A stretch of DNA of 64,000 nt from IMG/VR virus record IMGVR_UViG_3300044966_000489, one strand, 5' to 3'. The notes below the pieces were generated by a model. The model saw only the letters and a list, made by a program, of their open reading frames with translations, had not been told where the DNA came from and searched no databases. The position numbers and the translations under genes are program-made. Positions 42,125-53,091 of this stretch are shown here, piece after piece; position 1 is the stretch's first letter; every line of letters starts with the position of its first letter. Source of the DNA: a virus.

Positions 42125-42151
42125 AAAAAACCCCGCCGTGTGGGCGGGGTT
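42125..42151 (-). terminator. Intrinsic terminator
   Basis: A6-CCCCGCC-GTGTG-GGCGGGG. Confidence 0.85.
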
Positions 42152-42156
42152 GGCGT

Positions 42157-42624
42157 TCAAGGTTCTAGGTTCGCCACCGTGTCGAGCTTGAAAAGGAGGA
42201 TGTCGGGCGGGGTGGCGTTTTTTTTCTTCCGGTAGGCTTCAATGGTTTGCAATTCCTTCGGGGTCGCTTCACGCCCGTCAACGAGATACCGCACGGTACG
42301 TTGCGCGGTTGTCGGATCGCAAACGAGGTACAGCGTCCCATCGGTCTTGTGAACAGCCAATCCATCGATCACGTTGCCTTCGTCGTCGCGCACCCATTGC
42401 CAATAAGTCGGCGCACCTGCCGGGGTGCGTCCCTGCTTCTCCAAGCGTCGGCGGTACGTTTCCACGCCCGACACACGGGCGACAATTCGATGGTCCCGTG
42501 TGACTCGGCCCGTCAACGGGTTCAAGGGGCGTCCCATGCGTCCGCCCGTTGCCATTTCATGTGCGCCCGTGACCAGAATGGTGGCGAGGTGACCGGCGCG
42601 AATCTGTCCAATTTGGATTCCCAT
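42157..42624 (-). CDS. Hypothetical protein, GC-rich paralog of 43068-43496
   Basis: Start reassigned to MGIQIG. Shares AGH.ATIL..G..E..TGGR.G.PLN...GRVTRD with the neighbouring gene. Confidence 0.75.
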   Translation of the reverse strand: MGIQIGQIRAGHLATILVTGAHEMATGGRMGRPLNPLTGRVTRDHRIVARVSGVETYRRRLEKQGRTPAGAPTYWQWVRDDEGNVIDGLAVHKTDGTLYLVCDPTTAQRTVRYLVDGREATPKELQTIEAYRKKKNATPPDILLFKLDTVANLEP

Positions 42625-42743
42625 AGTGTGTTGCGTTTTTAGTTGGTGATCACAAGCGTCTCGCTTGCTTGGCCTGAAGTTACTAAAGGCAAAGGACATT
42701 GCAACGGAAAAGTGCGATTGTCACACAAAAGTAACAAATGCGT

Positions 42744-42945
42744 TTGGCACGGTCCATGCTCCCAGCACGTTTCATGCCAAGTCTAGGTTGGCACACTCTT
42801 TGCTCCCCAGCAAGTCCTATGCCAAGTCCGTGGAAACGATAGTTTTCCAATCTGGGGTCCCCAATTCCGAAAACTATGGTTGCCCATAGGTTGGCACGTT
42901 TCCTGCTCTGGCATGGTTCCTGCTCCCCAGCAAGAGTCGTGCCAA
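42744..42945. promoter_or_regulatory. Cluster of seven sigma54-type -24/-12 sites
   Basis: YTGGCAY-N5-NTGCT at 42744+, 42764-, 42788+, 42809-, 42891+, 42908+ and 42929-. Confidence 0.7.
42839..42877. repeat. 39-bp dyad element, copy 1
   Basis: atagttt tccaatct ggggtcccc aattccga aaactat. Confidence 0.95.
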
Positions 42946-43067
42946 GTGCCCGTTAACGTAGAAAATTAAAGTAGATTTAGTTCTTGTATATATATAAGTA
43001 TATAGTAAATTGGCATAGTCAGTTTGGTTCTTATATAAATACAACGTCACTATATAAATACAACATC

Positions 43068-43496
43068 ATGATCAATATAAATACAATTAAGGCTGGTCAC
43101 ATTGCAACTATACTACTACAAGGCGAATATGAATTGAAGACTGGTGGCCGTAGTGGTATACCCTTAAATATATACAAAGGCCGTGTCACTAGGGACTTTC
43201 GTTTTACTATATCGCTTGCGGGAGAAGATACTTATAATAATATATTCCCTGACGCTGTTGGTAAACCTACTTGGTTTGAGTTTGTCAAAGACGGTTTAGT
43301 GAGAAACAAAAAGACCGGCCAATTGTATTTGGCTGGGATTCCTCACAACAATCCCAAAAACAAGTTCGATTTGTTTGTTGATGGCCGTCCTATTACTGAA
43401 GAAGAGTACAACGCTATTCAACAATATCGTAGTGATAGTGATAAACCCAAGTTTCTCACTATGTCTATTGATAACGTGGTAAACGTAGAAGGCTAA
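43068..43496 (+). CDS. Hypothetical protein, AT-rich paralog of 42157-42624
   Basis: Start MININTIKAGHIATIL; alignment with the paralog is clear. Confidence 0.75.
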   Translation: MININTIKAGHIATILLQGEYELKTGGRSGIPLNIYKGRVTRDFRFTISLAGEDTYNNIFPDAVGKPTWFEFVKDGLVRNKKTGQLYLAGIPHNNPKNKFDLFVDGRPITEEEYNAIQQYRSDSDKPKFLTMSIDNVVNVEG

Positions 43497-43550
43497 TATA
43501 TAAACAGTGGGGCGCGAATACTATAAACGCGCATTTAATACTAAAACACT

Positions 43551-43748
43551 ATGAATGCTAATAAAATAAGTGTTATGGAAATGATTGATATACGAATTGC
43601 TATTCAAGCAGAGATAGACAAATGTAATACGCTTATAGCAGAGTGTGACAAAGGTAATTACAATAAGGACATCTTTGTTGATAAAAGAGATAGCCTTACT
43701 AGAGGTCTAGCTAAATTGAATAAGCAATACTATGATTTCATGCTATGA
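43551..43748 (+). CDS. Small hypothetical protein
   Basis: 65 aa. Resembles 49117-49305 (KISVMEMIDIRIAI vs KITIQEVVELRVAL). Confidence 0.6.
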   Translation: MNANKISVMEMIDIRIAIQAEIDKCNTLIAECDKGNYNKDIFVDKRDSLTRGLAKLNKQYYDFML

Positions 43749-43803
43749 TAATACTACTTCTTGTTGTCGTGTTAATAGGCATGACTAGATAAGCCTTAGT
43801 GAC

Positions 43804-43832
43804 AAACCCTCTGTAGTAATACAGGGGGTTTC
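43804..43832 (+). terminator. Intrinsic terminator
   Basis: AAACCCTCTGTA-GTAA-TACAGGGGGTTT. Confidence 0.75.
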
Positions 43833-43862
43833 TTGTTTATAAATAGTTGTTTATAAATAGCG

Positions 43863-51341: not shown

Positions 51342-51394
51342 GGAAAGGTTAACGCAAAGGGCAAACCAGCGCAACACTTTTGTTGCGTTTTTCA

Positions 51395-51433
51395 ATAGTT
51401 TTTCGCGCCGGGGTGTCCAGTTTCAAAAACTAT
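51395..51433. repeat. 39-bp dyad element, copy 12 (core inverted)
   Basis: atagttt ttcgcgcc ggggtgtcc agtttcaa aaactat. Confidence 0.9.
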
Positions 51434-51514
51434 CAAAATGTAATAATAAACCCCAATCTATCAAATCGAGGCTTATTTGACTTATTTGCGGTTAATGTTT
51501 TTAATATTTGAAGC

Positions 51515-51778
51515 TTAATGAAAGAAAATTCTTGACTCGTCTTTGAAAGTTTTCTCTTTGCCAGCTTCGTCCCATTCGATGCCGTATGTCAAACCTTCTT
51601 CGACATGATGTTTATGTAAATAATTGAAACCCTTGTATTGCTTTGCTTCCATCAGCAGGTCCGTCACGAAGAACTGGAGAGTTCTGCGTTGAATGATCGC
51701 TTCGTTTTTGCTGGTGCAAAAGAAGTGATTGGCTTTCAGTTTGACTGATTCAAGGCTAACCGTTTTACGTTTTGTCAT
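51515..51778 (-). CDS. Hypothetical protein
   Basis: 87 aa; leaderless promoter TTGCAA-N16-TACTAT-N7-ATG. Confidence 0.75.
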   Translation of the reverse strand: MTKRKTVSLESVKLKANHFFCTSKNEAIIQRRTLQFFVTDLLMEAKQYKGFNYLHKHHVEEGLTYGIEWDEAGKEKTFKDESRIFFH

Positions 51779-51822
51779 CGGGGAAATAGTAATTCATGGG
51801 CATGAGATTGCAAGGGTTTTTC

Positions 51823-51861
51823 ATAGTTTTTTTATTCTGGCACCCCAGACCCGAAAACTAT
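51823..51861. repeat. 39-bp dyad element, copy 13
   Basis: atagttt ttttattc tggcacccc agacccga aaactat. Confidence 0.95.
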
Positions 51862-51925
51862 CGTGGGCAGCGAAAAGGGGCACCCCGTAGGATGCCCCGT
51901 GCTGCTTCTATTTGGCGATCTGGCG

Positions 51926-52786
51926 TTAGTTGCTGGCGAGTTTCTTGAACTCGGCTTCGATCAGGCTGGCCTTGTTGAGGGCGACCAACGTGCCCCGGTT
52001 GATGCGTTGCGCCAGTTCGTATGAGGTAGGCTCGACCTGATGCGAGGTGAATTGGGTGACGGCGTTGTACAGGCTCCAGAGACTCCGGTTCTTGTCCTCG
52101 CGGTGCGAGGGGTCGTTCCAGATGATTTTGATTTTGTCCGTGTTGCGGTCAGCGATCACCTTGGCCTTGGTGAGCTTGTCGAGGATAGTGTGCCCCTGAT
52201 CCTGCTTGATGGAGCGGTCAGCCAAGCGGCTAAACACGCTGGTGCTTTCCTTGAAACCCTCGACCGCGCCAGCCACAACGTCCACAAGGCGGGAAACGTC
52301 GAGCTTGTCGGAGTGCTTCTGGGTGAGGCTGAACTCATCCTGAAGCGTCTTCAGGCCGTTGGTGCAAACGAGGCGAAGGATGCCCATCTCGAAAGAGACG
52401 CGACAGGTGCGGTCGAACGAGTTGTTGAGGATCAGGCGCAAGCCAAGCTCATCCCCAACCTTGGGCAGCTTCACCAGTTGGTTCTTGAAGTCATACTGGA
52501 CGTAGACTCGCGCACCGTCGCGCATGGAGTACTCCTTGCGGGTGAACTCGCCCAACTTGTTGTCGGCGAAGGCGTTCTCGACGGTATCCATCAGGGAGCG
52601 GTTCTGAACGAGGGTGTAGCGTTCAGTGCAAACCCCAAGCATCTGCTTGGTGTCGGTGCGGCGATTGCCGAGCCAACCAGTGGCTTCGCCGTCAGGGGTG
52701 AGAAGCGGGATAGTCTCGACCGTGTAGTCGAGCAAGCTATCGGCGCGAGTGGTGGCAGTGGCGGGGGTGACGTTGATCTCGGTCAT
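51926..52786 (-). CDS. DUF932/DUF945 (phage/plasmid LGT) family protein
   Basis: RTDT...LGV..RY.LVQN, NSFD, RLVCTNG...H and SLWSLYNAVT motifs. Confidence 0.85.
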   Translation of the reverse strand: MTEINVTPATATTRADSLLDYTVETIPLLTPDGEATGWLGNRRTDTKQMLGVCTERYTLVQNRSLMDTVENAFADNKLGEFTRKEYSMRDGARVYVQYDFKNQLVKLPKVGDELGLRLILNNSFDRTCRVSFEMGILRLVCTNGLKTLQDEFSLTQKHSDKLDVSRLVDVVAGAVEGFKESTSVFSRLADRSIKQDQGHTILDKLTKAKVIADRNTDKIKIIWNDPSHREDKNRSLWSLYNAVTQFTSHQVEPTSYELAQRINRGTLVALNKASLIEAEFKKLASN

Positions 52787-52892
52787 AAGTGCAGTGTTGA
52801 TGTTAAGTGTTAACTGACGGACCAGAGGTTAGACGGCAATCAAATCAGCCGCAAGTCCTTTTCGCACTTTTTTTTCAGAATCTTTCGGACCC

Positions 52893-52931
52893 ATAGTTTC
52901 CTGTGCCGGGGTGCCCAAATCCAAAAACTAT
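52893..52931. repeat. 39-bp dyad element, copy 14 (core inverted)
   Basis: atagttt cctgtgcc ggggtgccc aaatccaa aaactat. Confidence 0.95.
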
Positions 52932-53091
52932 CATTATCAAAAAAATAATCCTTGACAAACTATCTCATCTAGTATCTATCTCCTTATATATTTCAATCAA
53001 TAACTGGTATTATTTGGCTTATTTGCTGGTAATGTTTTTAATATTTGCAATAAAAAAGCCCCCTTTATTTAGGAGGCTAATCTTTATTATT

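Follow-up and report, generated by a model that had tools for sequence, protein, structure and literature searches.

A 39-bp dyad marks the transcription unit boundaries of an early-gene array in an uncultured freshwater phage

INTRODUCTION

What is the role of a short sequence that recurs once at every boundary between small transcription units, whichever way those units point? The question is raised by a 64,000-nucleotide stretch of viral DNA (IMG/VR record IMGVR_UViG_3300044966_000489; here, the window) from an uncultured freshwater tailed phage of ∼170 kb. No cultured relative was found, the best terminase identity being only 24%. In an early-gene block with terminase, PhoH, and sigma-like genes to its left and seven tRNA genes to its right, 14 copies of a 39-bp dyad enclose 13 transcription units. 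A first-pass annotation had likened this block to an integron, with a symmetric site that would allow insertion in either orientation, and had named the promoter-stem-loop (PeSL) modules of T4-type phages as the closest precedent. Based on comparisons among related phages, we lean toward the reading that the dyad is a protein-bound boundary and promoter site whose units are shuffled by homologous recombination, as in PeSLs.

RESULTS

Structure of the dyad array

The element has the form ATAGTTT-N25-AAACTAT. All 14 copies are exactly 39 bp long, no further copy lies in the window outside the array, and the number expected by chance is 0 (100 shuffles). Remeasured from dyad start to dyad start, the 13 intervals span 428 to 1091 bp, and the units run +,-,-,-,-,+,+,+,+,+,-,-,- with exactly one element per junction, including the divergent junctions (elements 1 and 6) and the convergent ones (elements 2 and 11), all as originally described. 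A profile of 345 distinct junctions revealed near-invariant outer boxes, GGG at positions 16 to 18, CCC at positions 22 to 24, and always A or T at position 20; the arms in between vary. The element can be read as a 7-bp directional core flanked by 16-bp arms (16-7-16). Its central 3 bp are mostly C-W-C and point in the same direction along most of the array, irrespective of gene orientation, so that the site is not the fully symmetric one first proposed.

Because the arms pair no better than shuffled arms (0.455 versus 0.487), we consider the dyad a double-stranded site rather than a hairpin of the attC or repetitive extragenic palindromic (REP) kind. None of the three sequence types described below shows excess complementarity, and the arms assort independently of each other. 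The element has no Rfam match, and no target duplication was seen in its flanks.

Every unit is closed by one terminator-like hairpin, nine of them detected by a scan and four (units 5, 7, 9, and 11) read from the sequence. Such hairpins are enriched (32 versus 14.9 ± 4.2), and many end 0 to 7 bp from an element, in agreement with the earlier remark that terminators abut it. The accompanying claim that units have promoters of their own holds in part. A generic sigma70 promoter scan was at chance level (38 versus 36.8), and a more specific pattern, TTG(A/C)NN-16/17-TANNNT, is present in 8 of the 13 units and at the far end of none. In these eight, ATG stands only 4 to 9 nt past the −10 box, so the mRNAs look leaderless; units 1, 2, 4, 5, and 13 have weaker or leadered promoter candidates.

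Sequence types of the element

Pattern scans located the array in ∼40 related contigs, many of them freshwater. Complete arrays hold 13 to 18 units and differ in content among relatives. An array of the window's site, type I, was absent from 185,579 prokaryote genomes (GTDB), which yielded only ten scattered single matches.

In type II arrays, all copies have the sequence A(G/C)AGTTGC-N23-GCAACT(C/G)T or differ from it by one base. The phages concerned have terminases 96 to 99% identical to the window's and otherwise the same array: most unit genes are 92 to 100% identical between types I and II, in one case up to the element edge. Both arms have nonetheless changed together in nearly every copy, and element type is discordant with the flanking core-gene tree, in which types I and II are mixed. 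Hybrid elements, with one arm of each type, were not found in 407 loci; 13 matches to hybrid patterns in IMG/VR were rejected as unrelated single hits. A whole type II element occurs once in each of four type I arrays, so segments also move by crossovers in flanking DNA. Type III belongs to marine relatives, where the array occupies the same genomic place and includes homologs of the DUF932, SLT, and unit 7 genes. Here, each arm continues outward to form a palindrome of 27 bp, the two palindromes lie around a 23-bp GC-rich center, and the G/C choices in the boxes vary independently on the two sides. The joint change of both arms in nearly all copies, without pairing between them, suggests that the site is under selection by a sequence-specific DNA-binding protein.

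The consensus of integration host factor (IHF) is WATCAANNNNTTR (PMC9452768). Among type III half-sites, 37 of 97 match it exactly and 71 of 97 with at most one mismatch. The window's type I (4 to 8 mismatches) and type II (2 to 6) do not match, and the marine site, unlike that of IHF, consists of paired 27-bp palindromes and is not a lone asymmetric site.

Some marine arrays carry an extra AT-rich 39-bp dyad 11 bp from the normal element (L369:2453-2541; L365:3864-3952; L375:958-1046). Genes 0a, 1a, and SLT track element type. The SLT allele (48336-48728) follows it at 52 diagnostic positions, with neighbors 89 to 100% identical between types, and is possibly a host-range marker.

Phasing with promoters

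The dyad is separate from the promoter, at a distance of 7 to 72 bp. Distances from the element to the −35 box cluster at 7 to 10, 16 to 19, 37 to 41, 60 to 63, and 71 to 72 bp, with outliers at 20 to 23, 27, and 33 to 34 bp, and within single families the distance shifts by about one helical turn (9/18, 8/18, and 62/72). The marine type III distances are 44 to 46, 55 to 57, 65 to 69, 88 to 90, and 110 bp. When the data were collapsed to promoter lineages, phasing was evident for both type I (R = 0.51, period 10.8 bp, P = 0.003) and type III (R = 0.62, period 10.9 bp, P = 0.0004), as would be expected of a protein acting on promoters. The spacing from element to element is not phased (P = 0.2 to 0.5), and looping between neighboring elements was rejected on this ground.

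Unit turnover among relatives

Units missing from the window sit whole between elements in relatives. Two unit families change place among relatives, one array has one family twice, and the DUF2958 unit is found in three slots and in both orientations. In an element, the left arm goes with the unit on its left and the right arm with the one on its right, which, together with whole-unit turnover, identifies the element as the edge of an exchangeable unit. On unit fusion, the element, terminator, and promoter are lost together, and an element never lies between genes within one unit. The earlier picture of a phage cassette shuffling array is thus upheld insofar as relatives add, drop, and reorder complete units at the element; its integron-like capture is not. 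Insertion in either orientation did not find support either. Orientation is fixed in all families except 1a and DUF2958, and the inversion of unit 1, which differs between lineages, meets an element with one end only, its other end lying within the unit.

Among 18 crossovers that could be reconstructed, the core, which is the longest shared block, accommodates 10 but not the other 8, with others falling in the outer boxes; among those free of conflict, two of three are in the right outer box. This spread over core and outer boxes follows the lengths of shared sequence, and the exchange does not look site specific. Of the recent alignment breakpoints, only 25% are no more than 45 bp from an element center, versus 14% by chance. 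Most change therefore takes place within units, whose distal genes are gained and lost, and the comparison with relatives that had been proposed as a check shows content and order varying at the element but most breakpoints elsewhere.

Recombinase search and candidate partners

No match to the integrase family PF00589 was found at E ≤ 1 in records G001 to G014, including a 94%-complete type III genome, nor was any match to the resolvase and serine recombinase families PF00239 and PF07508 found in the records searched, that genome included. Integrase, resolvase, and serine recombinase were also absent from the called genes of a near-whole composite genome of ∼165 kb, which was stitched from different relatives (one walked gene by gene, the window, and two overlapping records) and includes some proteins without annotation. 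HUH transposases were not seen among the called genes, these families not having been searched by name. RecA-like (RecA_N) and RuvB-like genes are present in the walked relative.

Gene 1a was rejected as a recombinase. Its predicted structure (predicted local distance difference test score, 81) gave only weak SH3/Tudor-like matches (best Z, 5.0), the other matches were uncharacterized phage proteins, and the Atlas gave no match. A candidate partner is a pair common to freshwater and marine members (L395:1539-2719; L381:14974-16130), in which an AT-hook protein of 78 to 83 amino acids is followed by a RuvB-like AAA+/winged-helix protein. The pair lies within a few kilobases of the array in marine members, and no RuvA was seen. 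No phage HU or IHF gene was found. A close freshwater relative encodes a TubZ/RepX-like tubulin (L403:6094-7242; best solved match 4ei7, E = 7e-17). The TubZRC centromere lies beside tubR/tubZ; in freshwater relatives the TubZ-like gene is distant from the array, and the marine array-bearing records, one of them 94% complete, yielded none. A TubZ centromere was rejected for these reasons.

Unit content and other features

The features are listed in Table 1. Recognizable cargo comprises DUF2958, SLT transglycosylase, Gp88, and DUF932 genes. The two genes of unit 4 form two separate units in some relatives. The tail of unit 7 (47242-47440) is conserved and noncoding and contains a ∼25-bp motif twice, with the terminator hairpin at the end of the second copy; it has no Rfam match and is possibly a small RNA. 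Along the units (42125-52931), in the direction of transcription, GC content falls from ∼48% at 200 to 300 bp to ∼35% beyond 900 bp, while TpA doubles; the remainder of the phage has 35% GC.

A second motif, TGGCAY-N6-TGCT, occurs in eight copies (0.35 expected), mostly as head-to-head pairs of 37 to 38 bp around element 1. It matches the sigma54 −24/−12 consensus. The motif is conserved in types I and II, with one isolated match in five marine loci scanned, and the same five loci also lack gene 1a. The copies are possibly sigma54 decoys or sites for the 1a and 0a proteins.

Table 1. Coordinates of the array, its elements and units, and associated features (window positions unless a contig is named)
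Feature	Position	Strand	Description
Array	42839..52931		14 dyads of 39 bp enclosing 13 transcription units; early-gene block between PhoH/sigma/terminase genes and tRNA cluster
Element 1	42839..42877		Divergent junction, left array end
Element 2	43863..43901		Convergent junction
Element 3	44537..44575		
Element 4	45097..45135		
Element 5	45737..45775		
Element 6	46468..46506		Divergent junction
Element 7	46924..46962		
Element 8	47441..47479		
Element 9	48244..48282		
Element 10	49335..49373		
Element 11	50352..50390		Convergent junction
Element 12	51395..51433		
Element 13	51823..51861		
Element 14	52893..52931		Right array end
Gene 0a	42157..42624	-	Outside element 1; 1a paralog (38% identical); terminator 42129-42151
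Unit 1	43068..43831	+	Gene 1a 43068-43496 (SH3/Tudor-like model), 1b 43551-43748, terminator 43804-43831
Unit 2	43981..44452	-	Gene 44024-44452, terminator 43981-44005
Unit 3	44579..45050	-	Gene 44634-45050, leaderless promoter 9 bp from element 4, terminator 44579-44606
Unit 4	45140..45617	-	Genes 45408-45617 and 45185-45388, terminator 45140-45167
Unit 5	45867..46372	-	Genes 46175-46372 and 45909-46166, hairpin near 45867-45891
Unit 6	46616..46920	+	Gene 46616-46894, promoter 72 bp from element 6, terminator 46903-46920
Unit 7	47041..47378	+	Gene 47041-47241 (homolog in marine arrays too), noncoding tail with repeated motif and hairpin
Unit 8	47534..48240	+	DUF2958 gene 47534-47839, two small genes, terminator 48221-48240
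Unit 9	48336..49330	+	SLT lytic transglycosylase 48336-48728, small genes to 49305, hairpin 49312-49330
Unit 10	49438..50348	+	291-aa gene 49438-50313, terminator 50329-50348
Unit 11	50396..51341	-	Gp88-family gene 50706-51341, gene 50447-50641, hairpin near 50396-50424
Unit 12	51445..51778	-	Gene 51515-51778, terminator 51445-51477
Unit 13	51877..52786	-	DUF932 gene 51926-52786, terminator 51877-51898
Second motif, TGGCAY-N6-TGCT	42745..42944		Seven copies, mostly inverted pairs, both sides of element 1; eighth 44516-44531
Glycosyltransferase/epimerase/methyltransferase cluster	L405:2354-7728; L406 and L407:1-8926; L378:17639-L379:10238		Relatives

Elsewhere in the window, two very long minus-strand genes (9436-25354) encode proteins of 2239 and 3064 amino acids built of many short repeats; they are 70 to 85% identical in a type II relative and probably specify tail-fiber or virion proteins. 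Among relatives, two tRNA genes (L395:3000-4560) are apparently interrupted by insertions of ∼400 to 500 bp that, read by eye, resemble group I introns. The glycosyltransferase/epimerase/methyltransferase cluster adjoins the ribonucleotide reductase gene and differs in each relative.

DISCUSSION

In the reading that we favor, a sequence-specific dimeric (or tetrameric) protein would bind the double-stranded dyad at every early unit boundary. Bound there, the protein would mark the boundary from a fixed helix face relative to the adjacent host-polymerase promoter and would serve as an architectural activator or insulator; phase-dependent promoter action is typical of DNA-bending proteins. The protein could be made by the phage or be a host nucleoid protein, the marine version of the site matching the IHF consensus, and IHF sites occur at lambda attP and some phage early promoters. 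At convergent junctions, the bound protein may back up the terminators. General recombination by the phage (RecA-like, RuvB-like) would delete, duplicate, and swap whole units, since the boundaries share sequence and the units share promoter and terminator parts.

Several observations weigh against this reading. Phasing of type II is nonsignificant in a small set (P = 0.16, n = 10), and the A-tracts that lie one turn apart upstream of marine promoters mean that deletions could partly create the phasing. Elements that lie between two terminators lack a promoter to act upon, yet they are as conserved as the others. The site therefore probably also does something without a promoter, perhaps blocking read-through, and the first-pass view of it as a boundary marker rather than a simple operator is sustained by the same observation. 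Arms that travel with their own unit are what a recombinase would also produce. With regard to the protein itself, genes 1a and 0a track types I and II but were not found in marine arrays, so gene 1a is not a general partner; the AT-hook and RuvB-like pair is common to freshwater and marine members but could not be linked to element type; and no candidate protein was linked to all three types by co-occurrence.

We regard as unlikely the alternative that the dyad is a site-specific recombination site at which a recombinase of unknown fold or host origin excises and reinserts unit circles, as in integrons or pdif modules. The 16-7-16 geometry with its co-oriented asymmetric center, the single element at each junction whatever its neighbors, and the division of the arms between left and right units would all suit such a site, and a concerted type switch would fit a change in recombinase specificity. 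However, none of the recombinase families sought was matched in the records and composite searched, no type I array turned up in prokaryote genomes, and recombination offers no reason for phasing with the −35 box. The crossovers that fit the core have to be set against the eight outside it, a pattern that later conversion could blur. Differences in unit order, including the moves of the DUF2958 unit, could also arise through unequal crossing-over followed by loss, and the unit 1 inversion meets an element at only one end. The integron reading in particular fails on mechanism: no integrase or resolvase turned up in the composite or in the 94%-complete relative, the site is not a hairpin, all but two unit families keep a fixed orientation, crossovers seem to extend beyond the core, and 75% of breakpoints lie inside units.

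Known systems of this kind offer partial parallels. Integron cassettes are mostly co-oriented and read from a shared promoter, whereas the units described here lie on both strands, each with a terminator and 8 of 13 with a clear promoter of their own. The arms of lox, FRT, and dif measure 11 to 14 bp; the element can be read as having the inverted arms and asymmetric spacer of 6 to 8 bp of a tyrosine recombinase site, but its arms are longer. Like integrons and attC site clusters without an integron integrase (CALINs) (IntI, attI, and attC; PMC4889954), the array has one repeated site per junction, and units of one or a few genes come and go whole; unlike them, it has no IntI that we could find, its site is not a folded attC hairpin, and much turnover occurs inside units. 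The pdif sites of Acinetobacter plasmids consist of a XerC arm, a spacer of 6 to 11 bp, and a XerD arm (XerC/D; PMC9771954). They too delimit gene modules that are shuffled without a linked recombinase gene, but the 39-bp dyad differs: its half-sites are alike, 27 bp separate its conserved boxes, and its type varies among near-identical phages.

A further possibility, slightly less likely still in our view, is that the sites organize DNA, as anchors for looping, protecting, importing, or positioning the DNA that enters first (parS/tubC-like or nucleoid-like), and that they lie between units as free places. The confinement of all copies to one 10-kb block, with none in the other genome segments scanned, fits this idea, as do the conserved convergent copies and the match of marine half-sites to the IHF consensus. 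Freshwater relatives do encode a TubZ/RepX-like tubulin, but array-bearing marine genomes do not appear to, and the unphased element spacing, the loss of the element together with promoter and terminator on unit fusion, and its absence from the inside of units speak against anchors; promoter phasing would need a separate explanation. That the element instead acts as a hairpin of RNA or single-stranded DNA, be it attC-like, REP-like, or a processing signal, or that it is a small mobile repeat, is highly improbable: it is an imperfect palindrome of REP-like size that abuts terminators, but the lack of covariation, seen in independently assorting arms and independent marine G/C choices, largely refutes a hairpin, and neither target duplications nor Rfam matches point to such an element.

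For shuffling, the PeSL precedent named by the first-pass annotation proved the best mechanistic match. No dedicated recombinase has been found for the PeSL cassettes of T4-type phages, and short-homology recombination has been proposed for them (Arbiol et al. 2010, PMC2839356; Comeau et al. 2014, PMC4122927). Mini-circles in infected cells and virions are a further mark of PeSLs. Similarly, we found a hypervariable block of small early genes in which relatives gain, lose, replace, and displace genes at repeated intergenic modules, with general recombination genes present and no dedicated recombinase found. The PeSL repeat, however, unites a stem-loop, promoter, and Shine-Dalgarno sequence, whereas in the phages studied here the repeat is a 39-bp dyad of its own that also occurs between terminators. 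The promoters here look leaderless, the dyad comes in three sequence types that switched in concert, and its distance to the promoter is helically phased. The host-takeover or pre-early modules of SPO1 and T5, 10 to 13 kb of short operons in mixed orientation with strong host-polymerase promoters and terminators, resemble the block in layout; we know of no repeated dyad at each of their operon boundaries, and our literature searches found no description of such a dyad array. The array thus evolves as PeSLs do yet departs from integrons, pdif modules, and PeSLs in their defining features. We would suggest only tentatively, and with considerable doubt, that it represents a class of phage early-boundary elements, neither integron nor PeSL, in which freshwater and marine phages use a dedicated protein that switches specificity between lineages and both controls promoters and catalyzes or targets unit exchange.

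Large lytic phages keep host-takeover and counterdefense candidates in fast-changing early blocks, the control and reshuffling of which are mostly unknown outside the PeSLs of T4. The array provides a precise handle on both: a 39-bp site whose three specificity types occur naturally in phages that are otherwise near-identical or related, together with its phasing rule and the naturally mixed arrays. A regulatory partner would be a boundary or enhancer protein that serves an entire early region, and a recombinase would be a new one with orthogonal sites. The array further delimits ∼25 ready-made expression units that are candidates for host-takeover screens.

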